Positions 43,967-64,000 of a stretch of DNA of 64,000 bases are shown here, piece after piece. Numbering within the stretch: position 1 is the stretch's first letter; every line of letters begins with the position of its first letter. Where the stretch lies: the NCBI GenBank assembly GCA_964414015.1, contig CAYPUE010000001.1, forward strand, positions 8,893 through 72,892, in the 5' to 3' direction. The translations under genes were made by a program, and so were the position numbers. Below the pieces are notes generated by a model. The model was given only the letters and a program-made list of their open reading frames with translations, searched no databases and had not been told where the DNA came from. The DNA comes from an uncultured Gammaproteobacteria bacterium. GTDB lineage: Bacteria; Patescibacteriota; Microgenomatia; Levybacterales; UBA12049.

Positions 43967-44910
43967 AATTCTTTCATTATCTCTCTATCTTTTTTTATAA
44001 ATAATTTCTGGTTTTTAAAACCGGAGATTATAATTTTTGGCAATAACATCAAAGCCTTAGAGAACCCAACAAAAAAAGCCAAATCCACATTGATTAACGA
44101 TTTTAAAAAATGGTATGGAAGCCATACGATATGCGAAATCTTCAAATCAAGATCGGTTATATTTTTCCAGACGAAAATAAATTGATTTCTATACGCAATA
44201 GTCTTTATATAAAAACTGGAATAACGCATTTTTATTGCACCTTTTTCATGCTCATGGATAACAATGCTTTTTGGTTCGAATATCAGCTTGTATCCAGATT
44301 TTAACGCGTTATAAGACAAATCAATATCTTCCCAGTAAAAAGGACTATATAGTTCATTAAATCCTCCGAGTTTCTCCCAAACACTTTTTCTAAATGCGCC
44401 GCTTCCTCCGTTAACCCAAAGAGTGTTTTCCTTATCAACCTCTCCTCGGGCATGAGCAAGAAAACCTCTTTTCCAAGAGCCTATTCCTCTCCCCCGCAAA
44501 ATCGTTTTCCCCTCTTCTTTGCTTTCATCCATACATCCTACTGCGAAAATATTTGGATCCGAAAAACGCCTCAACAGGGGACCCAAGAAATCTTTCTGGG
44601 GAATAACATCCGAATTTAATAAAATTACAATATCTCCTTTTGCGTTTTTCACTCCTCTATCGATACTTGAAGAGAAACCAAGATTTTTGTCGTTTTCAAT
44701 AATTTTAAATATTATATCCGGATACGCTGATTCCATTTTGGGCTTAAGCTCTTGAAGAACATTGATGGAATTATCAAGAGAACAATCATCCGTAACAATA
44801 ATTTCTTTTTCGCCATTCGCATAAACATTTATCGCTTCAAAAACCTTTGGTAGATTTTTTTTAAGAAGTTCTTCTCCGTTGTAATTTGGGATAATTACAC
44901 TTATGGTCAT
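43963..44910 (-). CDS. GT2 family glycosyltransferase
   Basis: 315 aa. ISVIIPNYNGEELLKKNL, EIIVTDDCSLDNS, LLNSDV. Confidence 0.7.
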   Translation of the reverse strand: MTISVIIPNYNGEELLKKNLPKVFEAINVYANGEKEIIVTDDCSLDNSINVLQELKPKMESAYPDIIFKIIENDKNLGFSSSIDRGVKNAKGDIVILLNSDVIPQKDFLGPLLRRFSDPNIFAVGCMDESKEEGKTILRGRGIGSWKRGFLAHARGEVDKENTLWVNGGSGAFRKSVWEKLGGFNELYSPFYWEDIDLSYNALKSGYKLIFEPKSIVIHEHEKGAIKMRYSSFYIKTIAYRNQFIFVWKNITDLDLKISHIVWLPYHFLKSLINVDLAFFVGFSKALMLLPKIIISGFKNQKLFIKKDREIMKEF

Positions 44911-48298: not shown

Positions 48299-48559
48299 TT
48301 GCTATGTTATTATCATTTTATGGATTATTTAACAAATTTTCCGGCCGTTCCTCCCATAGCATCTTTTATCCTCGTTTTATGGGGTATCGCATGGAAAGGA
48401 CTAGCCTTGTGGAAAGCAGCAAAACAAGATCAAAGAAATTGGTTTATAGCGATTCTTGTTCTTAATACTCTTGGGATTTTGGAAATTGTATACCTATTCA
48501 AATTCGCAAAAAAGAAAATGGAGCTTCAAGAGCTTAAATTTTGGCAACCAAAATCTTAA
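48299..48559 (+). CDS. Small two-TM membrane protein (hypothetical)
   Basis: 86 aa ORF. The probable start is the internal ATG at 48320 (MDYLTNF...). Two hydrophobic helices flank WKGLALWKAAKQDQRNWF. It is the only + strand ORF in this block and fills a 300-bp gap between minus-strand genes. Codon-like composition, Trp-rich. Confidence 0.4.
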   Translation: MLCYYHFMDYLTNFPAVPPIASFILVLWGIAWKGLALWKAAKQDQRNWFIAILVLNTLGILEIVYLFKFAKKKMELQELKFWQPKS

Positions 48560-50883
48560 TTTTTCTTCTTCGTTAATATTGCCTGCAGTACGATAATAGT
48601 TAAAAGCCCAATTACTGCTCCGTAAATTCCCAGCCTAAAACTTAACGGATCATATATGAATTCTACATTGTGTTTTCCTTTTGGCAGAATTATGGCTTTA
48701 AAAGCGTAATTGGCTCTGTAAATCGGAGTATTGACTCCATCAACTAAAGCCTTCCATCCCGGATAAAAAGGATCCGAAAGAAATAATATAGAAGTAGACT
48801 TTGATAAAGTCGAGATACTTACTGTATTAAATTTATAGTTCAAAATTTTAGCCTCTGATAAATTGTCAAAATTATTAAAAGATAAAGGAGCATTGGGGTT
48901 GCTCTCTAAAACTACTTCTTGTTCCGAATTAAATTTATCATCGTAAATGGTATCAATAATCTCTTGGGGGTCTTTAACTACTTTGTATTTACCGACCAAG
49001 AAGGCACGAGGCAAAACCTTTGTGTTTTCGTAAAATTCGTATTTATCATCACTATAAATTAATTTAAATTGTCCGGTTGGATAAGTCCAAAATGGAAATG
49101 TCCAACCCATGTTATCATCTGCTCGTTTGTGAACAATGTACTTAACGTTTAAAATATTTATCGTCTTCGATGTATAAGTTCCGCTTTTTGCAAATACCAC
49201 AACCGATCTGCCAAGATCCCTAATCCTACTATCCTGCACCGAACTTATGAATTCCCCGTATCTTTTTACATACAAAGCATCGTAACCCTCCAAGGAAGGC
49301 AGATGATAATAAACAGCATCTTCTGCGCCAAAATTACCTATAACCCTTTCGTATCCGGCTATTTTGGAAAATGCAATATTGGTTGGGGTATTAAAAAAAA
49401 CCAGATTTTTGGGATCAAACGGCTGCCACTTCTTTGCAAACCGCAACATATCAAAAGACACAATAAGTATCAGCAATAAAGCAGCCACATTCACTAATTT
49501 TTTCTTTGCAAAAGATAAGACAAAAACTAGCGTAGTCCCTATGAAAATTAAAGAAGGCAGGATGAGATTGCTTCTTGCTATAAAAATTTTGTCTTGCGGA
49601 ATAAATTGTTTAGAAATAATAATTATCCATAACGCAACAAATATGCCGGCAAAACTTGCAATCCAAATCAATATTTTTCTGTATTTTTTATCTGCAATAT
49701 CAAAGAATAATTGGTCGAAACCGAACGCCGCAAGTAATGCAAATATAAAAGCGTAAAGCGATACAATTCTACTCGCAGAGCTTGTAGCAAGTACTGGAAT
49801 ACGAAGACCAATTAAAAGATCTAAAAGAGGACTATTTAAAGCCAATAGAAAAGCTAATACTCCAGATATGAACAAAAAAACTGCTTGAGTCTTTTTCTTA
49901 CTTGAAATACTATATAAAGCGAGAAATAACGGTAAAATACCTATGTATGCATTCCATTCCGCGTAATGCCCATACCAATCGTTTCGAGTAACCGGATTTC
50001 CGAAAAAGTCAGGCGCTAGCAACGTTGGAATATAAGCCCAAGGTATCGCTTCTCCTTTTTGAAAAACAGCGCTTCTAAAAGACTGTGAATGAAATTCTAT
50101 TGATGGTAATAATTGGGGTAAAGACAAAAGTATTCCGCACAACGTAAAAATGCCTAAATATAATAGGCCTCCTACATTTCTTGTTGATATAAATTTATAG
50201 ATAATATATGCGAAAACAAAGAGAAAAAAGTATAGGCTTATCTGAAAATGCCCGCTAAAAAAAGACAAAGGTATGGTTAACGAAAATAATAAGAGAAATC
50301 CAGGCCTGTTTGTTTGATAATATTTTTCTATGCCAAATATGGCAAGAGGTAAGAATAATATTGCGTATCCTAATGTCGCATAACCCATCCACGTGGTCAA
50401 AAATCCGCAAAACATAAAAGAAATTGCAGAAATAATGCTGGCGAATTTACTCCTATATAATGTTCTGGCTAAAAGATACATAAATATTCCAGCCATTAGA
50501 GGCTGCAACAGTACGAAAATACTCCATGCGTCAACAAAGGGAAGAATAAAAAATAGCAGATTAAAAGGTGAAAATACGCCAGATTGGTAATTTGCCAAAA
50601 GGGGCGTTCCGGAAAAACTATATGGATTCCAAAGAGGAATTTGCTTACTTTTCCAAGCTTCTATAGTTAAATGTTTCCACGGATATATTTGAGTGATAAC
50701 ATCCGGCATTGCTCCATTTTTAACCGGCCCCCAAAATTTTTCGTATGCATCCCATGGGGCAAAATTATTCATTTGATAGGTAGATGCATAAGGAGCTTTA
50801 CTATTTAGGAAATAAGGCGATGCAAAAATAAACCATACTCCAAAAATAAATAATATTGGCCAAAATCTACTTAGTATCTTCAT
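48556..50883 (-). CDS. YfhO-family membrane protein (GT-C-like glycosyltransferase), paralog 2 of 3
   Basis: 775 aa. ITQIYPWKHLTIEAWKSKQIPLWNPYSFSGTPLLANYQSGVFSPFNLLF. C-terminus FYPGWKALVDGVNTPIYRANYAFKAIILPKGKHNVEFIY plus a terminal TM. Confidence 0.65.
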   Translation of the reverse strand: MKILSRFWPILFIFGVWFIFASPYFLNSKAPYASTYQMNNFAPWDAYEKFWGPVKNGAMPDVITQIYPWKHLTIEAWKSKQIPLWNPYSFSGTPLLANYQSGVFSPFNLLFFILPFVDAWSIFVLLQPLMAGIFMYLLARTLYRSKFASIISAISFMFCGFLTTWMGYATLGYAILFLPLAIFGIEKYYQTNRPGFLLLFSLTIPLSFFSGHFQISLYFFLFVFAYIIYKFISTRNVGGLLYLGIFTLCGILLSLPQLLPSIEFHSQSFRSAVFQKGEAIPWAYIPTLLAPDFFGNPVTRNDWYGHYAEWNAYIGILPLFLALYSISSKKKTQAVFLFISGVLAFLLALNSPLLDLLIGLRIPVLATSSASRIVSLYAFIFALLAAFGFDQLFFDIADKKYRKILIWIASFAGIFVALWIIIISKQFIPQDKIFIARSNLILPSLIFIGTTLVFVLSFAKKKLVNVAALLLILIVSFDMLRFAKKWQPFDPKNLVFFNTPTNIAFSKIAGYERVIGNFGAEDAVYYHLPSLEGYDALYVKRYGEFISSVQDSRIRDLGRSVVVFAKSGTYTSKTINILNVKYIVHKRADDNMGWTFPFWTYPTGQFKLIYSDDKYEFYENTKVLPRAFLVGKYKVVKDPQEIIDTIYDDKFNSEQEVVLESNPNAPLSFNNFDNLSEAKILNYKFNTVSISTLSKSTSILFLSDPFYPGWKALVDGVNTPIYRANYAFKAIILPKGKHNVEFIYDPLSFRLGIYGAVIGLLTIIVLQAILTKKKN

Positions 50884-50885
50884 TT

Positions 50886-51659
50886 TTATTTCCTATCTCT
50901 TATTTCTTTCTGTTGTAGTTCCCACAATCTCGCATAGGTAATAAAGATGCTGAAAGATTGATATATACTCTCTATAATCCCCACAGTTCCTGCCTTCCAT
51001 CCTCCTTGCTTAACATAGGAATCAAAAAATGCAGTTGACATCACGCGCGGAAACCTCCACCATGAGATCTTGGGATGGTTAGCGGCTAATCGAAGCTTCG
51101 CTTCAACTTCTGACCACTCAATGGTTTTATTAAGCATCGCCGTAAGATCTCTATGTGAGTAATGCAACAGGGATCCATCCAATATTCCAACTTTGCCCTC
51201 AAAAATTGGGCTTTCATGAAGTTTGCCTTTCCAGCCTTTCAATTTATCTTTTCTAAAAAGCCTTTCTATTTTTTCTATAAAAGGCCACTCATTCTTTCTT
51301 GAAGAACCCAAATAAAAATTTTTCCTTTTAATTTTAAACGCAACTGCATCGTCATATTTGATATTTGATATTTTATATTTGATATTGCGAACAAGCTCGC
51401 TTGTGACGCGTTCATCTACATCTACATACAACACCCATTCGCTAGTTGATTTTTCTAAACCAAAATTTCTAAGAGCAGAAAAATTATCGGATTCCAATAT
51501 GTAAACTTTTGCACCCATATTTTTTGCTATATCCAAAGTTTTGTCCTTAGAACCTGCGTCAATCACGATAATTTCATCACAGAACGCAATCGAATTTAAG
51601 CAATCTTTAATTAAATTTTCTCCGTCTTTAACTATTACAATCGCAGAAATTTTACTCAT
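50886..51659 (-). CDS. GT2 family glycosyltransferase with conserved C-terminal domain (paralog of 28465 and 52576)
   Basis: 257 aa. ISAIVIVKDGENL, IIVIDAGSKDKT, VDVDE. Linker RNIKYKISNIKYDD encoded by heptanucleotide repeats. Confidence 0.7.
   Translation of the reverse strand: MSKISAIVIVKDGENLIKDCLNSIAFCDEIIVIDAGSKDKTLDIAKNMGAKVYILESDNFSALRNFGLEKSTSEWVLYVDVDERVTSELVRNIKYKISNIKYDDAVAFKIKRKNFYLGSSRKNEWPFIEKIERLFRKDKLKGWKGKLHESPIFEGKVGILDGSLLHYSHRDLTAMLNKTIEWSEVEAKLRLAANHPKISWWRFPRVMSTAFFDSYVKQGGWKAGTVGIIESIYQSFSIFITYARLWELQQKEIRDRK
51356..51383 (-). repeat. Heptanucleotide tandem repeat (atttgat atttgat attttat atttgat) inside the GT2 linker
   Basis: Read directly. Four copies with one mismatch. 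Encodes KYKISNIKY on the minus strand. Homologous position to 28917..28944. Confidence 0.7.
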
Positions 51660-52573
51660 ACCCTAAAACTTCCTTTCCCGAACTTACCCGTATAAAAGTC
51701 CCAAATTCCTCTTTTCTGCCAATATCTTCCTTTTAAAAACAATGATAATGATTCCTTGATAAGAGCTAGTTTTGATTTAAATGGAGCGTATTTTATTCCA
51801 AAGAGCATTCTATTGCGGGTTATATAATAATCCTGCAAATTTGACCCAGAGCCACCAGCTGACGCTGCATTTTTATGCCAAATTATTGCTTTTGGTGAAT
51901 AAATAATTTTGTAGCCTGCTTTCTTGGCTTTTTGACTAAAATCATTGTCTTCGTAATATAAAAAATATTTTTCATTAAACAGACCTATCTTTTTAAATAC
52001 TTCGCTTTTAACTAACATGCAGCAACCGGTAGCAAATTCCGTTTCTTCTTCTTTGTCGTATTGTCCTTTATCAACCTCATCAACACCTTTATGACGACCG
52101 ATTATATTTGCCCAATCCATTGTTCCGCCGGCATACCAAAAAACTTTTCCTTGATCTTCTTTTTTATACCTGTTTTTATGGAATTCATATCCCTTCGCGA
52201 AATAAATCTTTGGAACTACAATGCCGATATTTTCGTCTTTTTCCGCTGATTTTAAAAATTCTGCGATTAAATTCTTATCAACAATCGTATCGTTATTCAT
52301 AATAACAATAAAGCCTGCTCCATTTTCCAACGCATATTTTATCCCCATATTATTACCCTTAGAATAACCCAGATTTTCTTTATTGGCTATGATGGCAGCA
52401 TTTGGAAATTGTTTTTTAACAGCTGCTAATGAGCCATCTGTTGAGGCATTATCCACTACTATAATCTCAATCCTTGTATCTTTAGGAAGTAAGATATTTC
52501 CTATCGATTCTAGACACTCTAACGTATCTTCTTTGCCGTTATAGTTTAATATAACAAATGAAACTTTTTGCAT
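51656..52573 (-). CDS. GT2 family glycosyltransferase (rhamnosyl/hexosyltransferase-like)
   Basis: 305 aa. VSFVILNYNGKEDTLECL, IEIIVVDNASTDGS, IMNNDTIVD. Confidence 0.7.
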   Translation of the reverse strand: MQKVSFVILNYNGKEDTLECLESIGNILLPKDTRIEIIVVDNASTDGSLAAVKKQFPNAAIIANKENLGYSKGNNMGIKYALENGAGFIVIMNNDTIVDKNLIAEFLKSAEKDENIGIVVPKIYFAKGYEFHKNRYKKEDQGKVFWYAGGTMDWANIIGRHKGVDEVDKGQYDKEEETEFATGCCMLVKSEVFKKIGLFNEKYFLYYEDNDFSQKAKKAGYKIIYSPKAIIWHKNAASAGGSGSNLQDYYITRNRMLFGIKYAPFKSKLALIKESLSLFLKGRYWQKRGIWDFYTGKFGKGSFRV

Positions 52574-52575
52574 CT

Positions 52576-53514
52576 TTACCAGCCAAACCTATCAATGAGG
52601 ATAACTAATATTTTCTTAAACGGATTCTTAACTTGTTTTATGCGCTCTTTTGATGACCAAAATTGTATTTGTTGATGTGATTTGTCAAGTTCACTTCTTA
52701 CCTCATCCAAAAGCTTATCACTTGTAGGATCGCTGAATTTCTGCATCTCCCATATATTTGCAAAAACGATAAAATGATAAAAAGCCATTAGGATTGAAAG
52801 CATTAAACCATGAAAACCATCCTTATAGCCTTCTCTTGCGAAAAACCTGCTTAAAAATTCTCCAAGAGGAAACCTTATGGCATCACGCCAGTTAAAAACG
52901 TATCCGTTAGCAATCCTTTGTTCTGCTTCATTTGGCGCGTAAATATTTGCCATTTTAGATAAAAATTGCCTAATTGAATCATAGTTATAATGAACGATAT
53001 TATTATTTAAATAAGCTGTTTCCCCTTCTACTTTTATCATCTCGTGAACATGTTTTTCTTCAAATCTGCCTTTACTGTTTTTGAACAATCTAAGCTGATG
53101 GTCCGGATACCAACCCGTATGCTGCATCCATTTGCCGAAAATTATATTTTTTCTAGGAATCCAGTAGCCATTGATTGGTCTTTGGCCGTTGGTCTTTGGC
53201 CGTTGGTCTAGAATACTGACGATTTCTTTTTGTAGCTCGGGGGTCGCTCTTTCATCCGAATCCAAGTTTAAAATCCAATCATTCTTGGTTTTTGAAAAAC
53301 CAAAATTTTTGTTTATATTGAGCATTCTGTTATTTGGCCTAACAAAAACTTTCGATGTATATTTCTTTGCGATGTCTAAAGTTCTATCTGTTGATGAGTT
53401 ATCAACGAAAATAATCTCCTGTGCCCATTTAACAGATTCTAAGCAGTCCTTTATTTTATCTTCGCTATTGAAGGCTGATATAACAACCGAAAGTTTAACC
53501 ATATTATTTCGCAA
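52576..53514 (-). CDS. GT2 family glycosyltransferase with conserved C-terminal GYWIPRKN domain
   Basis: 312 aa. LSVVISAFNSEDKI, IIFVDNSSTDRT, NLDSDE. Linker DQRPKTNGQRPING then GYWIPRKNIIFGKWMQHTGWYPDHQLRLFKNSKGRFEEKHVHE. Confidence 0.7.
   Translation of the reverse strand: MRNNMVKLSVVISAFNSEDKIKDCLESVKWAQEIIFVDNSSTDRTLDIAKKYTSKVFVRPNNRMLNINKNFGFSKTKNDWILNLDSDERATPELQKEIVSILDQRPKTNGQRPINGYWIPRKNIIFGKWMQHTGWYPDHQLRLFKNSKGRFEEKHVHEMIKVEGETAYLNNNIVHYNYDSIRQFLSKMANIYAPNEAEQRIANGYVFNWRDAIRFPLGEFLSRFFAREGYKDGFHGLMLSILMAFYHFIVFANIWEMQKFSDPTSDKLLDEVRSELDKSHQQIQFWSSKERIKQVKNPFKKILVILIDRFGW
53177..53209 (-). repeat. 14-nt tandem repeat (ggtctttggccgtt x2.4) in the GT2 linker
   Basis: Read directly: ggtctttggccgtt ggtctttggccgtt ggtcta. 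It encodes QRPKTNGQRPIN, with the unit read in two different frames. The unit length is not a multiple of 3. Confidence 0.7.
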
Positions 53515-54958
53515 TATTCTTTTTAATAAGAGCTATATCTGAAAGAATTTGGCGCTTTCCTATTAAAAAAGCTATACCAAAATATAGTATAGCACCAAAA
53601 ATAATTATGGCTATGAGCGAAGAAATATTCAGCATAATGTTTTTGCTTAAAAAATAAATGATTAATCCCATAATTGAAGAAGCAACAACAGGCTGCTGTA
53701 TTGAGGCAAGCACATTGAAATCTACATCTCTTTTTACTATATAGACAACTAAGATTACCGAAAAAGCTATTAATGCCGAAGCTACGGAAACACCGTTAAA
53801 GCCTAAGAAAAATATCAGAACAGGAGTCAGCATCCATGTAGCCACTGTCCAAAATATCATTAAATAAAGGGTGATTTTTATTTTACCTATCGCATTTAAG
53901 GCATTCGTAAGAGGAGTCGAGATAGACGAAAACAAAGCATTCAAGGCGAAAAAAGAAATAGAAAAAATAGCCGGTTCCCATTTCACATATTTTGGTATGA
54001 TGTGGATAAAATAAGGAGCTAGAATTACCAAACCAACGAGAGAAGGAAAAATAAAAAACGATGCCGCGAAGATTGATTTCTCAATCGCTTTCTTCAAAAT
54101 CTCTTTTTCCGTCTGCAGTCTGGAAAAAGAAGGAAAAGTAACCCTGATAATATTGTCCATTACCAATCGGAGCGGCATAAATGCCCATTTCTGCGCAAAC
54201 CCTATGTATCCGACTTGAGCAAGAGGCAAAACTTTACCAAGATAAGCTATCAGCAAATCGTCTTTTATTAACGCCAAAAAACTGTTGGTTTGGAAAGGCA
54301 CACCAAAAGATAAAAGTTTCTTTGCTATCTGTCTGGAAAATCCAAGTTCTATTTTCCAAGGTCTAATAATATAAATGGCGATAAGACCCGATATTCCCCT
54401 TGCCAAAACTGCTATTGTAAAAGTTGTAATCCCAAATCCTTTAATTGCCAGCACAACTGCCGTCAGACTAAAAAACAAGGTTTCGACGATTTGCGGTATG
54501 ACTAATTTTTCAAAACGCAGTTCTCTTTCCAGTAAAATCGAGGGTATGGTTTTAAGGGACGATAGGAAAAAAGCTATTATTAAAGCTTGAAACAATAACG
54601 TTCCTTCTCTATTTAAATTGTAAAAAGAAGAAAGACTGCTCGTTAAAAGCAACGCAATCACGGAAATTATTATGACTAATGCCTGCTGAATGGTAAATGT
54701 TGTACGCAGATCGTCTTGGGTAATAGGCTCTTTTTTCTGAATAAGCGCTGCTGCTAAACCGATGTCGGAAAAGTAGGCAAGAAACGCGATGGCTGCGGAA
54801 ACTACGAAAAACACCCCAAAGACTGAAGGTGATAAATAAATTGTCAATAGCAAATTAGACGAAAAATTTATTAGCTGTATGACAAAAGATCTGGAAGACA
54901 AAGCCAAAATCCCCTTAATTGATCTTTTTGTAACTGACGCTATGTCAATTTCTTCCAT
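53504..54958 (-). CDS. Wzx/MOP-superfamily polysaccharide flippase
   Basis: 484 aa. About 12-14 TM. N-terminus RSIKGILALSSRSFVIQLINFSSNLLLTIYLSPSVFGVFFVV..AAALIQKKE is typical of the PST/Wzx family. Confidence 0.65.
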   Translation of the reverse strand: MEEIDIASVTKRSIKGILALSSRSFVIQLINFSSNLLLTIYLSPSVFGVFFVVSAAIAFLAYFSDIGLAAALIQKKEPITQDDLRTTFTIQQALVIIISVIALLLTSSLSSFYNLNREGTLLFQALIIAFFLSSLKTIPSILLERELRFEKLVIPQIVETLFFSLTAVVLAIKGFGITTFTIAVLARGISGLIAIYIIRPWKIELGFSRQIAKKLLSFGVPFQTNSFLALIKDDLLIAYLGKVLPLAQVGYIGFAQKWAFMPLRLVMDNIIRVTFPSFSRLQTEKEILKKAIEKSIFAASFFIFPSLVGLVILAPYFIHIIPKYVKWEPAIFSISFFALNALFSSISTPLTNALNAIGKIKITLYLMIFWTVATWMLTPVLIFFLGFNGVSVASALIAFSVILVVYIVKRDVDFNVLASIQQPVVASSIMGLIIYFLSKNIMLNISSLIAIIIFGAILYFGIAFLIGKRQILSDIALIKKNIAK

Positions 54959-55679
54959 AATTTATATCTCTCCATAAGGCAAAACTTTCCCGTATTGCTC
55001 TAATTATAACTCTTAAATTCCCCCCGCTTTGATTACCATATTGACGCTTGTAATGATTAACCTCAACTTGTGTAATTTTCAAATTTTTCTTCTTAGCTTT
55101 GGCAAAAATCTCCGTGGTTATCATCGCCCCTTCTGATTTAAAAGGCATAATCTTACGAAGAGCGCTTTTCTTGAACATTTTAAACCCACAATCAATATCC
55201 CTGTAATAAAAACCGAAAAAGATGAAATCCCAAATTTTCAAAAGATTCATTAACAGATGTCTAAAAGGATGATCTAGACGTTTTTTCCTGTATCCAACCA
55301 CCATATCTGAATTGCTGATTTTATCTATAAATTTTGACACTTCTCTAAAATCAAATTGGCCGTCTCCATCATTAAAAACAACCAAACTGTATCTTGCGTT
55401 GTTAAATCCTTCTTTTAATGCCGCTCCATATCCTCTATTTGGCTTGTGGGACACGACTCTAAGCCTTGGGTCTTCTTTTGTGAGTCTTTTTGCGATTGCC
55501 AAAGTGCTATCCGATGAACCGTCATCCACCATGATTATCTCCCATTTATCAGCTACTTTTTGAGCCACAGGAATTACATTCTTTACAACCTTTTCTATAT
55601 TCTTTTCTTCATTCCAAAAAGGAAAAAAAATTGACAGCGCGGGAACTTTTTTACTCATATCGTAATTTTCTATTCGCAA
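54945..55679 (-). CDS. GT2 glycosyltransferase, DPM1/GtrB-like (no TM)
   Basis: 244 aa. LSIFFPFWNEEKNI, WEIIMVDDGSSDST, VVFNDGDGQFD (DxD). The start may be the internal ATG (MSKKVPALSIFF). Confidence 0.65.
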   Translation of the reverse strand: MRIENYDMSKKVPALSIFFPFWNEEKNIEKVVKNVIPVAQKVADKWEIIMVDDGSSDSTLAIAKRLTKEDPRLRVVSHKPNRGYGAALKEGFNNARYSLVVFNDGDGQFDFREVSKFIDKISNSDMVVGYRKKRLDHPFRHLLMNLLKIWDFIFFGFYYRDIDCGFKMFKKSALRKIMPFKSEGAMITTEIFAKAKKKNLKITQVEVNHYKRQYGNQSGGNLRVIIRAIRESFALWRDINYGRN

Positions 55680-57147
55680 AAGAGATTATACCAATAATCA
55701 AAGCTAAAATGCCAATAAAAGAAGCTATATTTGAAGTCTTTTCCAGCGTAGTTTCTTTAAACGGAATAGGGTCTTTCGAGACTTCTTTTTCCGATTTGGG
55801 TTTTGTAAAATTAGAAGGTAAATATTCGTCCGAAATTTTGGACGCTGTCCATTTAAGAGCTTTCTCATTTGTAAAATCGCTTGCAGTTGACGGAAAAATT
55901 GTTTGAGGAACGAAAAACTTGAGATTAAAAAATAAAAGAAAAAATACCAGCAGAAATGCTACGAGATAAGGTTTTATTTTGAATTCAGATGAAAGAGGAA
56001 TAATTGCTCCGGAAAGTATCGAAGAAAAAAATGAAGCCATGATTAAAAATCTCCACGGATATTGAAAAAAAGACATAACTGAAATTGTTTCCCATAAAAA
56101 TTTCGAGATGTTAAGCATTAGAAAAACAGCAATAATAAAACCCGCAAGGCTGAAAATAGTTAAATAATATATACCCGCCTTGCGGCGAGGCAGGTTATTG
56201 AAGTATTTGCGTTTGGCTCTTAGATAAATCAAAATGGGAATTATGGATAATACAGAAAGAATGTGCAACTTGCCTATCATAAAAGACATTCCGTCAATAC
56301 AGTTTTTTGCGGAACCGCCAAATCCCCAAGGACTTGTCCAGAGTTGCTCAAAACAAACAAAATGATCTCGGAAATCCGCTCCTCCGCCGATTTGCGATAA
56401 AACATTAGTATATTTCATTTCCGAAAGCGCCGGCAGCCAATAGAAAGCGGAAAGAACTAAACCCAAGATGACAGTAAGTAGCAAGTAGCATGTAGTACGT
56501 AGACGAGTTTCTTTTCTTGATAAAATAATAAACAACAAGCAGACAATAAGCAAAAACGGCGTTACCATCAGAGCAGTTAAATTGTGAGAAAGAATAACTC
56601 CGGCAAATCCCAAAGCGCCAACAGCTACATATTTCCATTTGGGATTTTTATAAACTTTGATTAATCCGTAAAAAGACAGAGGAATAAAAGCATAAGCCCA
56701 AAATTCTGCCACATCTCCACGTACATAGATATCAACAGCATGGTATGGAGCATAAGCGTAAAATAAACCTGAAACTATCCCGCCCAATTCTCCGAAAAAA
56801 TTCCTGGCTAAAAGATACATAAAAACCCCACTCAAAATAACTCCCAATGCCATCATTATTTTTGTAGCTAAAAGTGCATCAAATCCCAATAATGTAAATA
56901 TTCCGCCAGCGTAATAAGCTAAAGGAGCGTAAAAATTAAAAATCGGATATCCATATCCATAACCTAAGTCCGGAACCCACCTAACGGGAAACATTCCGCT
57001 TTGGAGCATTTTTCCCATCTCAAAAACTCTGGCAACTTGAGTATTGTCATGCATTGGGAAAAACCCGGAAACAAATAAAGGCTTTATCGCCCAGAAAGAT
57101 AAAACCAAAACTAAAATCAATCTATAATGTTTTTTAAGAAAATTCAT
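55651..57147 (-). CDS. HDG-PRW-GYGYP family polytopic membrane protein (YfhO-related GT-C-like), C-terminal YFPGW domain absent
   Basis: 498 aa. FFPMHDNTQVARVFE...GMFPVRWVPDLGYGYGYPIFNFYAPLAYY. Ends with a TM anchor but lacks the YFPGW block. Confidence 0.5.
   Translation of the reverse strand: MNFLKKHYRLILVLVLSFWAIKPLFVSGFFPMHDNTQVARVFEMGKMLQSGMFPVRWVPDLGYGYGYPIFNFYAPLAYYAGGIFTLLGFDALLATKIMMALGVILSGVFMYLLARNFFGELGGIVSGLFYAYAPYHAVDIYVRGDVAEFWAYAFIPLSFYGLIKVYKNPKWKYVAVGALGFAGVILSHNLTALMVTPFLLIVCLLFIILSRKETRLRTTCYLLLTVILGLVLSAFYWLPALSEMKYTNVLSQIGGGADFRDHFVCFEQLWTSPWGFGGSAKNCIDGMSFMIGKLHILSVLSIIPILIYLRAKRKYFNNLPRRKAGIYYLTIFSLAGFIIAVFLMLNISKFLWETISVMSFFQYPWRFLIMASFFSSILSGAIIPLSSEFKIKPYLVAFLLVFFLLFFNLKFFVPQTIFPSTASDFTNEKALKWTASKISDEYLPSNFTKPKSEKEVSKDPIPFKETTLEKTSNIASFIGILALIIGIISFANRKLRYE
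56474..56501 (-). repeat. Degenerate heptanucleotide-period repeat (gtaagta gcaagta gcatgta gtacgta) inside the membrane-protein CDS
   Basis: Read directly. 7-nt period, g.a.gta consensus. Encodes LRTTCYLLL. Homologous position to 58038..58069 in the adjacent paralog. Confidence 0.4.
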
Positions 57148-58664
57148 ATCTTTTTTTTAATTACCGCAAACAAAAGCGCGCCAAAACTTATTATTGAAAT
57201 TAAATCCGCTGCCAATCTGATCGGTGTTTCCTCAAATGCAACCTTAACGTTATTCTGTCCCTTATCAAGATTTAATCTTATTAATCCCTGCTGATTATTA
57301 TAATCTATATTTGCTCTTTTCCTGTTGACAACCGCCATCCATCCCGGAAAATAAACCGTATTCACCTGAATTGTTCTTGGCGTTGGTAAATAAACATCAA
57401 ATGAGATTTGTTTCGGACTAATAATAGTTGTGTTAATTTTTTCCTGACCGTTTAAATTTTCAACTTTGGCGTTTGGTCTTGCAGATGGAAGAGCTTTAAC
57501 CCATTTTGGCATATATTCATTTTTTATTGTTGTTGTTGCCTCATTGGTTGCGTAAAATGTATCTCTTTTATCGAAAAACAAAGAAGGGCTGATAAATTGT
57601 CTGGCAGAAAAACCCAACAGCAATAATAGAATTACTGCCATAATAATTTTTAAATTTTTTGCCAATAATGAAAGCGACACTGCTGCCAAAAATGCCCCAC
57701 ATGAAATTGTCAAAGATAAAAAACGGAAAGGAAATTGAATAAAAGAAACCGGCAGAAAATTCCATAAAGGTTTACTTAATTCTACGGAAAAAAATAAAGA
57801 CAAAATACCGATAATAAAAAATAGAACTGTTAATCTGTGTTTGGCAAGCGCAATTTTATTAGTAAGAAAAAGAATTATTGTTAAAAAGAAAACAAAAATG
57901 ATCGGTATGCCAATTAAACTGCTATTTACGAAGTAATTGCTCCATTCTGAAACAGCAGTTTGGGAAAAAACCGTATATTGCAAATCCGCTATGGCCGGAA
58001 GCCAGAAAAAGGAGGAAACGCCTAAACCCAAAGTCACAGTAAATAGTAAATAGTAGATAGTAGATAGTTTTCTGAAAATAAAGTAAACAATAATAACAGG
58101 CAAAAACAAAACTGCCAGAGTATTGTGGGAAAGAATTAAAAGAGCAATGCCTATACTTGTCCAAAAAAGACTTTTACGCTCAATTTGCCAAAAGATAAAT
58201 GGGACGATTGCCAAAGCCAAGACTTCCCCGACAGATCCTCGTTTGTAAATATCATATAAGTGATATGGGACATAAAGATAAAAAAGTGCGCCGACAAATG
58301 ATTCAAGTTTTCCGAAAAACTTTCTTAGCCAAAGATATGCGAAAACCAAAGAGCCGGCCATGGACAAACCGAAAATTATTTTGATTGAATTGACAAAACC
58401 GAAACCCAAAAGTTTCGGTACCTCTGCCAAATACATGAAACCGGGATATAAAAAATTTGCCACCGGATAACCGTACTCGTAATTAAGTCTGGATAAAAAG
58501 CGCACTGGAAATTCTCCGGCTCTTAAAGCCTGATGAAAAGCAGAAAATCTGATAATCATCCATTCTCCGTCATCGCTTTGAAAAAATCCAGGATGAAAAA
58601 GAGAAGCAATAGATGGAATTGCAAAAATAATTAAGATAAAAATTAAAAATAAATTCTTCTTCAT
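57144..58664 (-). CDS. HDG-PRW-GYGYP family polytopic membrane protein (YfhO-related GT-C-like) with C-terminal YFPGW domain
   Basis: 506 aa. GFFQSDDGEWMIIRF...GEFPVRFLSRLNYEYGYPVANFLYPGFMY. C-terminus NTVYFPGWMAVVNRKRA...KGQNNVKVAF plus a TM. Confidence 0.55.
   Translation of the reverse strand: MKKNLFLIFILIIFAIPSIASLFHPGFFQSDDGEWMIIRFSAFHQALRAGEFPVRFLSRLNYEYGYPVANFLYPGFMYLAEVPKLLGFGFVNSIKIIFGLSMAGSLVFAYLWLRKFFGKLESFVGALFYLYVPYHLYDIYKRGSVGEVLALAIVPFIFWQIERKSLFWTSIGIALLILSHNTLAVLFLPVIIVYFIFRKLSTIYYLLFTVTLGLGVSSFFWLPAIADLQYTVFSQTAVSEWSNYFVNSSLIGIPIIFVFFLTIILFLTNKIALAKHRLTVLFFIIGILSLFFSVELSKPLWNFLPVSFIQFPFRFLSLTISCGAFLAAVSLSLLAKNLKIIMAVILLLLLGFSARQFISPSLFFDKRDTFYATNEATTTIKNEYMPKWVKALPSARPNAKVENLNGQEKINTTIISPKQISFDVYLPTPRTIQVNTVYFPGWMAVVNRKRANIDYNNQQGLIRLNLDKGQNNVKVAFEETPIRLAADLISIISFGALLFAVIKKKI
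58038..58069 (-). repeat. Heptanucleotide tandem repeat (agtaaat agtaaat agtagat agtagat) inside the membrane-protein CDS
   Basis: Read directly. Two perfect copies of each of two units. Encodes STIYYLLFT, which is TM-helix residues. Confidence 0.7.
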
Positions 58665-58671
58665 TTAAATT

Positions 58672-60309
58672 TTATTTGGTCTCTAAAATCGTAAACATGA
58701 ACTGATTGTTTGGCAAAATTACATCGTATCTTGGGTTATAATTCGACCGCAAAGACATCGGGACATCTGAAGACCAATCGATAAGCAATGTATTTTTTAA
58801 ATTTATATCTTTCTTCCAGTCAATCGGCCTAAATTCATATCTGCCAAAACTTTTGACATACACGAATTCATCTTCTGTCGGCGCATATCTGACAGCTTGT
58901 TTTTGATATAGAAAAGGATCGTATTTGCTGTAAAAAAGAAGATAAATATAAGGCTCGTATTGCGGTCTTGCCATAATTATTTTTTGGGAAGAAAACTGGG
59001 GTTCTGCCAGCAACAAATTTAATTCTTTATAACCCAAACCCCAATTTTGCGCCTCATTTCTTGGGAAATGTACATAATATCTATCCAGATATAAAGAAAA
59101 ATTTATAATAAACAAAAACGCAATTATAGAAACTGCAAATATTCTCCATTTTTTATTGATCAGGCCCGTGAACGACCACAAACCAAAAGCTGTAACCAAA
59201 GGCAGAATTGGAAAAATCGCAAACATTCTGTTGGCATGCGGCGCATCTTTGGTAATACTGGCTGCAATTGGAGAAATAAAAAACCACCACAAAACCAAAT
59301 ACTTTTCTTTGCCCTTTTTAAAAACGACTAAATAAACCAATCCTAAGAAAAGAAACGGCGCTTCAACTAAATACATATTGCCGAAATCAGCAATGTTGTG
59401 CGCTTTATTAGTTCCTCCGCTGACGAATAGAAACTGGCCGGAAAAAGCATTGATGTAATTTTGTCCGAATCTTTCCAAGCCAAAAACAACACGGTTATGC
59501 GTTAATCTAGTGAAAAAAGAATTAAGATTGCCATGTTCCAATCTTGGCAATTCGATTTGCGCGTGTACAACCGACGGATCGCCGAAAATACCAATTCCTG
59601 AAATCTTTGTTTTATCTGCGCCAAAAAGTGTTTGGGAAAAAATAAAACCGGACATTGCTAAAAAAATAACTATCGCAATTATGGTTGTTTTTGTTATTTT
59701 TATCTCTAAGCGATAAATAAGCAATAAACCCAAGACGATAAGGCTAGTAAAAACATGGTTTCCTGCGTAAGTAAAATAAGTCAAAGCGAAGAAAAAAGCT
59801 GCAGGAATTATCAGCCAATGTTTTTTCTTCAGACTGTTGAGAAAACAAATCATCCCCAAGACAACAAAGAGAACTGCGGTATTGGATTCTGACTCAACTC
59901 TGGATAAGTGCAGATGCCACGGTGAAATTCCAATTAAAAACATTGCTAAAAAAGCTAATAAATTATTTTTGAAAAGCAACTTTATCAAGAAAAATGCCAG
60001 ACCAACCGAAGCAATACCAACCAAAGCCGAAGGCAGCCGGACAGCCAATTCCGAAAGCCCCAGAACGCTAACAAACGGCACAACGCTATAAATATAGACC
60101 GGCAGTTTCCAATCGCCAAAAGACTGAAACGATAAAGGCATAAATCGGCCGTACTCATCACGCCCGGTATGTAGAATTGAATAAGCAGTATAGCCGATGG
60201 ATGCCTCGTCTTGATTTACTCCGGGAGGAACAGAGTCTAAATGATAAAGCCTTAGGAGGGCGGCGAGAAAAAGAATGATAAAAAAAACGAGCAGCAATTT
60301 CTTACTCAT
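58672..60309 (-). CDS. PMT_2/ArnT-like GT-C glycosyltransferase (paralog 5 of 5)
   Basis: 545 aa. VNQDEASIGYTAYSILHTGRDEYG. SPWHLHLSR. Confidence 0.65.
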   Translation of the reverse strand: MSKKLLLVFFIILFLAALLRLYHLDSVPPGVNQDEASIGYTAYSILHTGRDEYGRFMPLSFQSFGDWKLPVYIYSVVPFVSVLGLSELAVRLPSALVGIASVGLAFFLIKLLFKNNLLAFLAMFLIGISPWHLHLSRVESESNTAVLFVVLGMICFLNSLKKKHWLIIPAAFFFALTYFTYAGNHVFTSLIVLGLLLIYRLEIKITKTTIIAIVIFLAMSGFIFSQTLFGADKTKISGIGIFGDPSVVHAQIELPRLEHGNLNSFFTRLTHNRVVFGLERFGQNYINAFSGQFLFVSGGTNKAHNIADFGNMYLVEAPFLFLGLVYLVVFKKGKEKYLVLWWFFISPIAASITKDAPHANRMFAIFPILPLVTAFGLWSFTGLINKKWRIFAVSIIAFLFIINFSLYLDRYYVHFPRNEAQNWGLGYKELNLLLAEPQFSSQKIIMARPQYEPYIYLLFYSKYDPFLYQKQAVRYAPTEDEFVYVKSFGRYEFRPIDWKKDINLKNTLLIDWSSDVPMSLRSNYNPRYDVILPNNQFMFTILETK

Positions 60310-60450
60310 TACGTAGCTTTATTATAGTCAATATGAGTATAAAGCGCAAAATTACCTTGAAGCCAAATAAGAAAAGTTACCTTTCGTTATAGGAGATACA
60401 AGTTTAGCGTCACGCAATGTGCGTTGCGGGGAATGGGTATAGTGGGGTTG
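60310..60450 (-). promoter_or_regulatory. 141-bp intergenic region, the largest non-coding gap in the array, with candidate sigma70-like promoter for 58672..60309 and a G-tract island
   Basis: On the minus strand, ttgcgc -17 nt- tataat lies about 11 nt upstream of the ATG at 60309. The + strand carries GGGG/GGG/GGGG/GGGGG tracts and a small acgca-atg-tgcgt hairpin. GC content is clearly above the local background. Confidence 0.3.
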
Positions 60451-62829
60451 TTAGCTTGTTCGTTTGGGGGTGAAAAGAAAAATGACTAGAAGTAAAACGC
60501 TGACAATAGAAGTCCAGAGGCCGAGTTGAAAGGAGAAAGGATTGTAGATAAAATCTATTTTGTGCTCCCCTGCCGGAACGAAAACACTTCGGAAAGCATA
60601 ATCTGCTCTATATATAGTACTCTGCCTCCCATCAATGTAAGCTTTCCAGCCAGGATAATAAGTATCGGAGAGAAAAAGCAAATTGTTGTTAGTTGCATTT
60701 ACCTTAACTACGATTTTATTTGGTTTATATTGCAAGATGCTTACCGATTCGGGATTATTGTTAAATTGTCCGATTGCTAAATTGTTAGGACTTAAACCTT
60801 TAGGATTTTTTTCTAATAAAATTGTTTTGCCCGGATCAAAATCCTTGGCGAAAAATAATTTTTCAAACTCTTCTTTATTATTGAAAGTCTTATAATCCGA
60901 TACTAAAAATGCGCGGGGCAGGACCTTGGTATTCTCAAATATTTTCCAGCCGTTTTGTTCATAAATTAAATTAAATCTATCCGCAGGAAAATCATTTTGC
61001 GTACTGGCATTTTCCGCTCTGTCCAAAACATATTTAACTCCGAGCAAATCCAATATTTTCAACCGGTAAGGATTAGTACTAAGATTGCCTGTTTGATCTA
61101 TATTCGCATCCGACCGGGTTTGGCCGGTAAAATTAGTTTCAATCCTGCCGTTGGCTGCTGCCTGAATAAATTCTCCGTATCTTTTCGGGTACAAAGGATC
61201 ATAACCCTGGGGGGAAAAAAGCTGATATTCTGTGGCAAAATTAGCTTCAATATTACCGGCTTGATATCCCCAAAACCTGTTAATCCCTGCTTTTCCTTGC
61301 AGGAAATTTAAAACTTGGGCATTGGGAAAAACCAATTCTTTGGGAGAAAATGGATTAAATTTTTCAAATGAACGCCACAAGTCAAAAACATTAATCAGCA
61401 ATAAAATCATTAAAATGAAATATCTTAATTTTTTATTCCAAACCGCTATTAACAGTAAAACAGCAGAAATAAGAATAAGAGCCATGGAGTAAGAGAGATT
61501 GCGCAAAGAAATCTGCAGCTGGATGTTTAAACCGTAAGCATTAGTCTTTTGTAAAAATAAGGTAACAGCGTATAACAGTAAAAAGAATAAGATAACCGGC
61601 AGGACCAAGTAAAAATATTTTTTAAGTCTGATATTTTCTTTCTCCAAAAAGTCAATTCCCAGTCCTGCTAAGATACTGGCTGCAAAACAGAATAAAAATA
61701 CTGCGAGTGTAGGCGCGCTTCCTGAAATAAGCGGCAAATTTATTCTATAAAGAAGGGCTGTCAGCGGATTGTTGGTAACCAAAATTAAAACTATTACAGC
61801 TGTCCAAAGAAAAAACTTCTTGAAGGGATTTTTTTGGGAAAAAATGCCGAATAAAATAAAAATAACAGCTGTAATGCCAATGGAAGTAACTTTTCCGACA
61901 TAAGTATCGAAAAGCCAGTAATTTCTGGTTGCGGGATTACCAAAAAAATCAGGAACCAAAAACATTATCAGCTGATAAGGCTGGATCAAAATTTTATTGA
62001 TTAAAAAATCATACTGGTGAGGACTTCTGGCTGCTTCTCTAATTAATTCTATTCCCGGAATAAGCTGAACTGCTCCTAAACCTAAAGACAAAATGCTTAA
62101 AAGACCAAACCACACCGCCGATTTCCTGTTTCGAAAAATAAAATAGATGATTGAAAAACCGAAAAGATAAACAAAAATCTGAATATGTCCTGCCAAAAGC
62201 GAGGACACAAGTGAGAAAACAAAAATTAATATCCATTTCTTTTCTCTTTTTTCCAAAAGCTTTTCAATTGCCAAAAGAAGCAGAGGCAGCCACAGAATCA
62301 CTTGATCAATCGTGTTGTATTCAAACCAGACAGTCATAAATAAGGAAAAAGCAAAGGCACTCGCGGCAAAAATTGCTCCTAATTTTCCTAGGTTTATTTT
62401 TCTGGCATACAGATAGGTAAAAAGCCCTGCCAAAAGCGGCTGAAGCATAACCAGCATAATCCAAGCGCTAAGCTTTGCTGTTAATAAATAGGCAATATTT
62501 AAAGGATAAAAAACAGCCGACTGAAAATTGGCCAGAAGCGGTGCACCGGAAAAATTATAAGGATTCCACAAAGGCAATTGTAAATTTGTAAGCGCATCAA
62601 TCACAAGAGTTTTCCAGGGATATAGCTGGCGAAGAACATCAAAATATTGGGCTTTATTGGGAAATGATCCTGGAACATAACCCAAGTAAGAATAGGTTTT
62701 CCAGGGATTGTACTCTGCGACCAATAAATCTCCGGGAAAAGGAACAAGTCCGAAAAGAACAGTTTTATAAAAAAAGAAAGTCCCAAGCAATAATAACAAC
62801 AGAATAATTAAAAACCATTCTTTTTTCAT
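60451..62829 (-). CDS. YfhO-family membrane protein (GT-C-like glycosyltransferase), paralog 3 of 3
   Basis: 792 aa. LRQLYPWKTLVIDALTNLQLPLWNPYNFSGAPLLANFQSAVFYPLNIAY. C-terminus YYPGWKAYIDGRQSTIYRADYAFRSVFVPAGEHKIDFIY plus a TM. Confidence 0.65.
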   Translation of the reverse strand: MKKEWFLIILLLLLLGTFFFYKTVLFGLVPFPGDLLVAEYNPWKTYSYLGYVPGSFPNKAQYFDVLRQLYPWKTLVIDALTNLQLPLWNPYNFSGAPLLANFQSAVFYPLNIAYLLTAKLSAWIMLVMLQPLLAGLFTYLYARKINLGKLGAIFAASAFAFSLFMTVWFEYNTIDQVILWLPLLLLAIEKLLEKREKKWILIFVFSLVSSLLAGHIQIFVYLFGFSIIYFIFRNRKSAVWFGLLSILSLGLGAVQLIPGIELIREAARSPHQYDFLINKILIQPYQLIMFLVPDFFGNPATRNYWLFDTYVGKVTSIGITAVIFILFGIFSQKNPFKKFFLWTAVIVLILVTNNPLTALLYRINLPLISGSAPTLAVFLFCFAASILAGLGIDFLEKENIRLKKYFYLVLPVILFFLLLYAVTLFLQKTNAYGLNIQLQISLRNLSYSMALILISAVLLLIAVWNKKLRYFILMILLLINVFDLWRSFEKFNPFSPKELVFPNAQVLNFLQGKAGINRFWGYQAGNIEANFATEYQLFSPQGYDPLYPKRYGEFIQAAANGRIETNFTGQTRSDANIDQTGNLSTNPYRLKILDLLGVKYVLDRAENASTQNDFPADRFNLIYEQNGWKIFENTKVLPRAFLVSDYKTFNNKEEFEKLFFAKDFDPGKTILLEKNPKGLSPNNLAIGQFNNNPESVSILQYKPNKIVVKVNATNNNLLFLSDTYYPGWKAYIDGRQSTIYRADYAFRSVFVPAGEHKIDFIYNPFSFQLGLWTSIVSVLLLVIFLFTPKRTS

Positions 62830-64000
62830 AGCAATTTTCGTACAGGCTTAAAAATTCCAAAGACGAGTAAAACCGTAATTGCCAAAACCGTTAATAAATC
62901 CGCTGTCAATCTTAATTTATTTTCGCCGAAAGCAACTGTTATCTGGTGTTCTCCTTGCGGTACGTAAAAAGTAATCTGTCCCCGCCAATTTTGGTCCTGG
63001 AATTGGATAGGAACCGAAACGCCCTCCACAAGCACCCGCCAGCCGGGATAATACTGGGTATGGTTAACCAGCTGAATTTTGGTCTTGGCATTAACAGTAA
63101 AGGTCTGAAGATTTGATTTTTTCTTAAAGTTGGAAATTTCTCCTTGTCCGCCGATTAATTCTATTCTTTGCTTGGGATAACTTACTGCCGGGCCCTTAGA
63201 CCAAATCAGATCGGTTTCTCCGTAATAAGTGGTATTCAGAGGAAAATTCCAATAATAATCTTCATTGATTTTATCAAGGCCAAGCTGGGGCTTCCAATAA
63301 TACACGGTTGAAAAAATAACTAAAAAAAGTAACACAACATAAACTATTTTTTGGGAGAAAAATTTATAGCGGAAGACGAAAACCGATAAAAGCGATAACG
63401 CAAGCCCGCTGACTGATAGGAATCTCCAGGGAAATTGAAACTGCCTAAGCAAAGCTATGTTTGCCCAAATTGGTTTAGATACAGGCTGCATCATCAATAA
63501 TGAAATTGCGAAAATTAAAAGTGCGAAAATAAGTAACTTCTTTAATTTTGATTCCAGTTTTTTAAAATTAAATAGTGCAAAAATAGAAACTAGCAAAACT
63601 ATTGTGTGGAAAGTCCCCAATTGTACAGCTACTCCTCCTGTCTGAAACCCAACAGTATTAAAAAAATTAGGAATAAAGAAATTTTGAATTGGCGGAAAAT
63701 GGGAAAGATAAACATTCTTCATAAATAAATCTCCGTAGGTGTATTTATGTTCCAAAATTGCCGGCAGCCAATAAAAAGCCGAAAGCATTAGTCCTAAAAA
63801 AAGAGACATTAAACCCCAAAAATAATGCTTGCTATTTTTTCCAAAAACAAACACAAAAGCGAAAATCACGCCAAAGAAAACCAGACTAATTGCATTGTGG
63901 GAAAGCACAAGCAAACCTGTTGCCATAGATGTTAAAACCAAGTATTTGTAATTTAATTTGCTAAACAAAAGAGTAAGTCCCCACAAAACCAGAGGTAGAA
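62826..64000 (-). CDS. HDG-family polytopic membrane protein (YfhO-related), 5'-partial; N-terminus lies beyond the window end
   Basis: The ORF is open to the window edge. The visible part aligns with residues after about 170 of paralogs (LSHNAISLVFF...). C-terminus HTQYYPGWRVLVEGVSVPIQF...QGEHQITVAF plus a TM. Confidence 0.5.
   Translation of the reverse strand, partial: LPLVLWGLTLLFSKLNYKYLVLTSMATGLLVLSHNAISLVFFGVIFAFVFVFGKNSKHYFWGLMSLFLGLMLSAFYWLPAILEHKYTYGDLFMKNVYLSHFPPIQNFFIPNFFNTVGFQTGGVAVQLGTFHTIVLLVSIFALFNFKKLESKLKKLLIFALLIFAISLLMMQPVSKPIWANIALLRQFQFPWRFLSVSGLALSLLSVFVFRYKFFSQKIVYVVLLFLVIFSTVYYWKPQLGLDKINEDYYWNFPLNTTYYGETDLIWSKGPAVSYPKQRIELIGGQGEISNFKKKSNLQTFTVNAKTKIQLVNHTQYYPGWRVLVEGVSVPIQFQDQNWRGQITFYVPQGEHQITVAFGENKLRLTADLLTVLAITVLLVFGIFKPVRKLL

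Follow-up and report, generated by a model that had tools for sequence, protein, structure and literature searches.

A common C-terminal beta-sandwich and membrane anchor in YfhO-like and PTPS_related proteins of a Candidatus Levybacteria glycan locus

YfhO-type membrane proteins carry out the extracytoplasmic step of three-component pathways in which a family 2 glycosyltransferase (GT2) loads a sugar on undecaprenyl phosphate, a flippase brings the loaded sugar to the other side of the membrane and a glycosyltransferase of the GT-C type performs the transfer; their acceptors are teichoic acids, either of the wall or lipoteichoic, or protein segments rich in Ser/Thr (PMC5836110, PMC11898649, PMC11092751). 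YfhO has been described as having ~13 transmembrane (TM) helices, the last two of which are separated by a large loop on the extracytoplasmic side (PMC5836110). The GT-C enzymes of this family include B. subtilis YfhO, S. mutans PgfM1/PgfM2 and streptococcal PgtC2. In this work, a DNA stretch of 64,000 nucleotides (GenBank assembly GCA_964414015.1, contig CAYPUE010000001.1, positions 8,893 to 72,892), hereafter the window, was analyzed. It contains three YfhO-like open reading frames (ORFs), all above the Pfam threshold for YfhO, and five shorter membrane proteins designated the HDG family. The three YfhO-like proteins and four of the HDG proteins carry the same C-terminal beta-sandwich module, in six cases followed by a last TM helix, and the two families are collinear and homologous over their whole length. 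Individual proteins are named by the first coordinate of their ORF.

The loop topology of YfhO fits 48556 and 60451, in which ~260-275 residues separate a TM helix ending near residues 484-488 from the TM helix at 746-773 or 764-789, respectively. In contrast to YfhO, 44907 and its orthologues have no last TM helix. The HDG proteins, ~250 residues shorter than YfhO, have neither the extra TM helices nor the greater part of the periplasmic loop, only ~125 residues being found between the corresponding TM helices. The second family of reference is PTPS_related (PF10131), a member of the Pfam GT-C clan CL0111 according to PMC7801869, where its function is given as unknown. The four complete HDG proteins score above its gathering threshold and NCBI names close homologues accordingly, whereas the C-terminal third of these candidate phyla radiation (CPR) proteins is matched by the YfhO model and not by the PF10131 model. 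A third comparison is offered by AftD, a mycobacterial arabinofuranosyltransferase (PDB 6W98/6WBX) whose GT-C core is followed by periplasmic beta-sandwiches, after which the chain returns to the membrane as a single TM helix (bioRxiv 10.1101/2019.12.22.885152). This order of GT-C core, beta-sandwich and single TM helix is shared with the HDG proteins, but the likeness is structural only, and AftD differs by its size (~1,400 residues), its set of three CBMs (carbohydrate-binding modules) and its four-helix bundle binding the acyl carrier protein. No match to DUF3367, the AftD family, was obtained at E <= 0.1, and the module profile did not find any AftD chain among PDB sequences at E <= 10. 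Finally, 'component 27' of Durairaj et al. (2023, Nature) groups bacterial TM proteins which are labelled YfhO in InterPro, although their models superpose poorly on true YfhO, and which were set apart as a family of their own in the STT3/PglB/YfhO superfamily (PMC10584680). Their annotation situation is like that of the HDG proteins, with a median length of 665 residues against ~550 here.

The C-terminal module and its natural variants

The C-terminal block, (F/Y)(F/Y)P(G/T)W ... G.(H/Y/N), is present in seven ORFs of the window, all on the minus strand, and a final TM helix comes after it in six of them. The module covers ~85-90 residues, and ~45 residues upstream of PGW can be aligned too. 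Among the HDG proteins, 24184 (24184-25818, 544 residues) associates a TM core, the beta-sandwich module (residues 429-515, 24274-24534; strands between 436 and 511 in its AlphaFold2 model) and a terminal TM helix (24187-24273; model helix 515-542, hydropathy peak 516-544). The same organization is found in 29242 (29242-30894, 550 residues, PF10131 E 3.4e-14), with the module at 29335-29604 (module profile E 5e-21) and the helix at 29254-29334 (residues 521-547), and in 57144 (57144-58664, 506 residues, PF10131 E 2e-8), where 'SDDG' replaces 'HDG' and the module lies at 57222-57485 (module profile E 2e-25) and the helix at 57147-57224 (residues 481-506). The fourth carrier, 62826 (62826-64000), is cut at its N-terminus by the window end, its frame being open to base 64000; its module (62916-63185, module profile E 2e-25) gives the best cross-family match (E 2.6e-9) and its terminal helix is at 62829-62918. 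The fifth paralog, 55651 (55651-57147, 498 residues, PF10131 E 1.6e-8, PMT_2 E 2.3e-7), is devoid of beta-sandwich, no module match being detected in the HMM (hidden Markov model) and deeper-profile searches of the window ORFs, and has kept a terminal TM helix (55663-55740, residues 470-495).

On the YfhO-like side, 48556 (48556-50883, 775 residues, PF09586 E 4.7e-28) has its module at 48640-48900 and its terminal helix at 48565-48648 (residues 746-773), and its C-terminus matches PgfM2 and PgfM1. In 60451 (60451-62829, 792 residues, PF09586 E 4.8e-29, the best stretch being residues 695-772 against profile positions 755-833), the module is at 60532-60792 and the helix at 60463-60540 (residues 764-789). 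The third protein, 44907 (44907-47186, 759 residues, PF09586 E 2.9e-19), carries a divergent module with FYPTW (44910-45185). It ends with ...ILFYDTLL right after the last strand, the next gene overlaps its stop codon, and no hydrophobic segment could be found past residue 497. A preliminary description of this DNA had attributed block and TM helix to all three YfhO-like proteins; the block is indeed present in each, and the helix in 48556 and 60451, but not in 44907. The divergence that it noted for 44907 (module E 6e-17 with the deeper profile) is borne out, and so are its statements that four of the five HDG proteins (24184, 29242, 57144 and 62826) end in block and helix and that 55651 lacks the block. 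The interval which it gave, 57144-62829, holds only two of the seven carriers, together with an unrelated PMT-like gene (58672-60309) without module.

The searches within the window were carried out on 207 six-frame ORFs. An HMM built from the three YfhO-like C-termini found the four HDG C-termini in register (E 2.6e-9, 2.4e-5, 1.8e-3 and 1.9e-2), the next match having an E of 0.5. The reverse HMM, built from the HDG C-termini, found 60451 and 48556 (E 5e-8 and 2e-7). With a deeper module profile, seven ORFs and no others were retrieved below E 0.4 (E 7e-34 to 6e-17), and this specificity holds despite the presence of many other GT-C-like membrane proteins in the window. When the module alone, without the TM helix, was compared between the HDG and YfhO families with hhalign, an E of 6.2e-25 (probability 99.6%) was obtained.

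The profile of the seven C-termini was then searched against 1.84 billion cluster representatives, a check proposed in the preliminary description; 34,374 of them matched at E <= 1e-3 and 4,674 at E <= 1e-10. The best full-length matches are PTPS_related or YfhO proteins, with 50 of the 72 top ones being PTPS_related and 33 matching YfhO. Among the 120 closest homologues of 55651 (P0391-P0510), 95 have no module (median 485 residues) and all 95 show a TM helix in their last 45 residues, while the other 25 have the module (median 565 residues), followed by a TM helix in 24. Decay of the 55651 gene was rejected, the module-less form being conserved at 57-82% identity in the 95 homologues. Similarly, GTDB genomes provided 61 complete relatives of 44907 (loci L001-L069), of which 51 end 0-13 residues past the module and lack a TM helix; as a rule, YP(T/S/N)W takes the place of YPGW in them. 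The 44907 type represents a conserved Microgenomates subfamily of YfhO-like proteins, and a truncation artefact was rejected, this helix-less end being conserved in 51 genomes. As judged from this conservation, the module-less and anchor-less forms are conserved lineages and not artefacts of the present assembly. Four very long predicted proteins with 2-4 module copies were also observed: P0241 (3329 residues), P0243 (3051 residues) and P0306 (1879 residues) combine YfhO, PTPS_related and PMT_2 regions, whereas P0242 (1670 residues) has PTPS_related with DUF3105 instead. Either these are genuine fusions of GT-C units in tandem, or the gene calls have read through.

Family identity and common ancestry

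On the basis of profile scores, the HDG family is Pfam PF10131 (PTPS_related), called "6-pyruvoyl-tetrahydropterin synthase-related protein" by NCBI. The gathering threshold of 26.4 bits is passed by 24184 (55.2), 29242 (52.7), 55651 (33.9) and 57144 (33.6), and 62826 has no PF10131 match because its N-terminus is missing at the window end. In these proteins, only profile positions 1 to ~305 of 621 are matched. The three YfhO-like proteins score 69-102 bits against PF09586 (gathering score 28.5), and their core stretches map to profile positions 67-598. The comparison of the HDG proteins with PF09586, also proposed in the preliminary description, was successful for the C-terminal block and not for the core: with hmmscan, 24184 matches positions 771-821 of 835 at 27.7 bits (E 1.2e-6), just below the cutoff of 28.5, and the other HDG proteins do not match, so that the HDG set cannot be assigned to YfhO as whole proteins. 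When 40 module segments from both families were scanned alone, the Pfam match of all 40 was the YfhO C-terminus (best E 4.8e-15), and no stand-alone Pfam domain was found. The module corresponds to positions ~755-835 of the YfhO Pfam profile. In the NCBIfam models of streptococcal PgfM1 and PgfM2, it matches the end, over the last ~80 residues.

The alignment of 84 HDG-type with 55 YfhO-type sequences by hhalign extends far beyond this block. Over the full length, the probability is 100% and the E is 2.6e-42, with 510 collinear columns (HDG 1-536 against YfhO 1-786), and the TM core alone (HDG 1-372 against YfhO 1-398) gives an E of 5.9e-25. In the crossed controls, the probability stays below 1% for core-module and module-core pairs, and it reaches 9% when the HDG core is compared with the middle region of YfhO, where TM helices are present. 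Several residues are conserved at 80% or more in both families (HDG/YfhO numbering): D32/D34, G65 and P67/G95 and P97, Y78/Y108, P155/P182, H187/H215, Y201/Y229, P236/P258, G285/G318, the PGW triplet and G503/G754. D32 is an aspartate in 81 of the 84 HDG-family sequences and a glutamate in the other three, and it aligns with D34, an aspartate in 45 of the 55 YfhO-like sequences. This conservation in both families identifies the D of 'HDG' as the first-extracytoplasmic-loop acidic residue typical of GT-C enzymes, in agreement with its position eight residues after TM1 in the model of 24184. The two families differ by a stretch lying between core and module, of ~2-3 TM helices (residues ~400-490) and ~200-270 periplasmic residues, which the YfhO type possesses and the HDG type does not. 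The HDG proteins are thus in effect a short form of YfhO, as had been proposed; the qualification 'previously unrecognised' has to be abandoned, PF10131 being listed in CL0111, most of the 120 closest public homologues of 24184 bearing precomputed PF10131 and PF09586 hits, and one relative being called 'YfhO family protein' by NCBI.

Common ancestry, domain shuffling and chance have to be weighed against each other for the origin of this common end. The possibility that an aromatic-Pro-Gly-Trp motif and a hydrophobic tail recur fortuitously in AT-rich sequence could be raised for a genome of 31-37% GC and a window full of polytopic membrane proteins, and we regard it as hardly credible; it was rejected on the reciprocal HMMs, the hhalign score of the module without its helix and the specificity of the deeper profile, which separates seven of 207 ORFs from the next match by 16 orders of magnitude, and an AlphaFold2 prediction on a mixed-family alignment yields the same confident sandwich fold. 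Recombination of a sandwich-plus-anchor cassette between two otherwise separate GT-C families, which the preliminary description had left as an option, has in its favour that module and anchor occur independently in natural variants and that a Pfam sequence-level search sees only the C-terminal block of the HDG proteins as YfhO-like. It is nevertheless improbable, since the cores are homologous and collinear too and keep the same conserved residues, and since the identity between families is equally low for the module (16-25%) and for the core (17-22%). Within a family, the window paralogs share 26-44% identity in the module and 31-40% in the core. As module and core have diverged in parallel, in proteins related over their whole length, vertical descent is favoured over shuffling, and recent exchange of modules between paralogs was rejected on the same identities. 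The common ancestry that had been suggested is therefore well supported, and the profile-profile relation goes beyond the short motif and includes the cores.

The membership of these proteins in PF10131 and PF09586 and in the GT-C superfamily is known already, and the module is embedded in the YfhO Pfam model. We did not find it stated in the literature that the CPR-type PTPS_related and YfhO proteins share a discrete sandwich-plus-anchor module and a collinear core, nor that either of the two, module or anchor, occurs without the other in conserved lineages, nor that the sandwich resembles one of AftD. Nothing specific was found on YfhO or PTPS_related in Patescibacteria, or on a Pfam clan with YfhO; YfhO itself is, as we take it, also a member of CL0111, no confirming source having been found. 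These results tidy annotation rather than reveal a new kind of system. They explain why ~550-residue CPR proteins have both PF10131 and PF09586 hits under names varying between 'PTPS-related', 'GT39', 'YfhO family' and 'hypothetical', and they suggest that the YfhO Pfam model could be divided into a core and a C-terminal sandwich domain. In the databases, the names given to this one family include '6-pyruvoyl-tetrahydropterin synthase-related protein', 'glycosyltransferase family 39 protein', 'YfhO family protein' (P0467, 500 residues), 'LPXTG-motif cell wall-anchored protein' and 'hypothetical protein'.

Fold and proposed role of the beta-sandwich

The AlphaFold2 model of 24184, computed from a 65-sequence alignment, is of high confidence (mean predicted local distance difference test, pLDDT, 88; predicted template modelling score 0.89); its helical core is followed by eight strands, located within residues 436-511, and by a helix spanning residues 515-542. 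The C-terminus, whose structure the preliminary description had proposed to predict, is thus modelled as a confident beta-sandwich then a TM helix. With eight or nine strands at pLDDT 85-96, the module has a beta-sandwich fold, as CBMs do. Foldseek comparison of the model with the PDB returned AftD, STT3, AglB, PglB, ArnT, DPY19 and Pmt4, the TM core being superposable on solved GT-C enzymes, and the folds nearest to the module are accessory sandwiches of carbohydrate-active enzymes (glycosidases) and a sandwich of AftD. PDB searches by sequence and structure did not yield any solved YfhO-type structure, and 60451 and 24184 have no match at E <= 1 among PDB chain sequences. The module profile gave insignificant PDB sequence matches only (a dynein light chain and an 89-residue Ser/Thr-kinase fragment, E ~0.1), and no Pfam CBM family matches the module. 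The kinase fragment, 9k1u_D ('PGEQVSLDGK...LAPGRYQLEI', with a PEGA-like strand pattern), resembles the second half of the module weakly and not significantly, and TcaA_3rd_4th is matched in 9 of 40 modules, again without significance.

We consider it likely that the window is a glycan-decoration locus in which the PF10131 and PF09586 proteins descend from one ancestor with core, sandwich and anchor, and in which, as we infer, these proteins transfer sugars with the sandwich as an accessory part. This ancestor would have had an N-terminal TM catalytic core of ~380 residues with the GT-C fold and the first-loop aspartate, an eight-stranded extracytoplasmic beta-sandwich of ~85 residues with the (F/Y)(F/Y)PGW turn, and a last TM helix starting three residues past the sandwich. 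By analogy with the CsbB/GtcA/YfhO, PgfS/PgfM1 and GtrB/PgtC2 systems, neighbouring GT2 enzymes would make a polyprenyl-phosphate-sugar donor, from which each HDG or YfhO-like paralog would move the sugar to an extracytoplasmic or surface acceptor using the first-loop aspartate. The sandwich would form an accessory or structural cap over the core, which the anchor tethers to the membrane surface. It may have a part in acceptor handling, but the basic chemistry would proceed without it, since it is missing from conserved lineages. In the 24184 model, the turns between strands count 2-4 residues and the last strand joins the TM helix after three residues, which would make the (F/Y)PGW turn, between strands 4 and 5, membrane-proximal and the DG and G.H turns distal.

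Several points weigh against this reading. Homology, architecture and fold are demonstrated here, whereas the donor, the acceptor and the role of the sandwich are deduced, and no biochemical data were found on any PF10131 protein. In the HDG proteins, the YfhO core is undetected by hmmscan and seen only in profile-profile comparison. A closer relation of the HDG proteins to YfhO than to other GT-C families is weakly established: the HDG core also matches the five PMT-like paralogs of the window (E 2.3e-8), the YfhO core does not match them, and this control profile is shallow (5 sequences). In 48556, a threonine ('APYASTYQ') stands at the position of the first-loop aspartate (D34 of 60451); this protein may be catalytically altered or inactive, or the alignment may be locally shifted. 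The predicted placement of the PGW turn at the membrane-proximal tip, including its position relative to the active site, is an inference from strand parity only. Finally, no GtrA/GtcA-type small flippase was detected among the four small intergenic ORFs scanned.

The preliminary description had seen in the module a substrate-measuring or acceptor-binding domain, and a carbohydrate-binding or acceptor-measuring function, setting which polymer or protein each paralog glycosylates, is possible but rather doubtful. The sandwich fold and its nearest structures would suit such a function, the AftD periplasmic sandwiches including glycan-binding CBMs, as would the modelled position of the module on the extracytoplasmic side beside the catalytic face and the divergence of its sequence between paralogs outside few invariant positions. 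However, the most conserved positions (PGW and G) do not vary between paralogs or between the two families, which suits a structural or interface role common to all better than a role in acceptor specificity, and a large conserved lineage works without module. One AftD sandwich is moreover described as purely structural, and which AftD sandwich was matched is not reported in the search output. Less likely still is that the sandwich-plus-anchor is an ancient separate domain marking a deep GT-C clade (YfhO, CPR-type PTPS_related and possibly the AftD structural sandwich with TM12), with the membrane-proximal PGW turn in the acceptor or donor entry site; if true, it would be a functional determinant common to tens of thousands of uncharacterised surface-glycosylating enzymes. 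Returning to the sandwich as an accessory part, the invariant PGW and G, the variable remainder and the module-less lineage fit a structural or interface role with possible acceptor contact better than a sole specificity determinant, and this is the weakest part of the proposal. For the function-unknown PF10131, it offers a modest lead, namely a YfhO-like, polyprenyl-phosphate-sugar-dependent surface glycosylation with Asp32 as putative catalytic residue, and the natural module-less and anchor-less variants could guide truncations in tractable YfhO enzymes.

Gene neighbourhood and source of the window

The window most probably represents a locus for glycan decoration in a Candidatus Levybacteria (Patescibacteria/CPR) genome, with GT-C membrane glycosyltransferases in large number. 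From ~24 kb to its end, nearly all genes are on the minus strand with glycan-related products, and the base composition of the window is 31-37% GC. The nearest database relatives of the studied proteins belong to Candidatus Levybacteria/Levyibacteriota and other Patescibacteria metagenome-assembled genomes (MAGs), with 78-85% identity for the genome JAUSEW010000027.

The HDG paralogs are adjoined by a GT2 gene (54945-55679, minus strand, PF00535 E 1.2e-26), a candidate polyprenyl-phosphate-sugar synthase which would supply the donor. A polysaccharide-biosynthesis membrane protein of the MOP/Wzx type (53504-54958, minus strand, PF13440 E 4.8e-47) is the candidate flippase of the locus. Further GT2 genes are found at 41832-42548, 43963-44910, 50886-53514, 23241-24182 and 28465-29229, the GT2 types of the window being either GtrB/CsbB-like with C-terminal TM helices or short and DPM1-like. 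GT2 genes and MOP-type membrane proteins adjoin GT-C genes. Five PMT/PMT_2-like GT-C paralogs of ~545-555 residues, three of them in tandem, occupy 30903-35833, 37441-39108 and 58672-60309 on the minus strand. They have a common C-terminal soluble block of their own (...GKFEFRPIDW...), without terminal TM helix.

The density of glycosylation genes in the window is unusually high, with well over 12 GT-C-like membrane proteins, ~12 GT2/GT4 genes and two MOP-type membrane proteins. The GT-C-like tally includes a DUF2079 protein (42545-43966), an MptA_B-family protein (25788-26930) and ORFs without family assignment (35875-37419, 39108-40334, 40340-41830, 6735-8942 and 13163-15304). Two DUF5667 proteins of ~190 residues each are encoded inside the glycan locus, at 8939-9526 (plus strand) and 26927-27502 (minus strand). 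The title 'uncultured Gammaproteobacteria bacterium' is borne by many GTDB representative genomes (binchicken/SRP co-assemblies) in which these Levybacteria genes have close relatives; for such Patescibacteria MAGs, it looks like a submission-level taxonomic mislabel.

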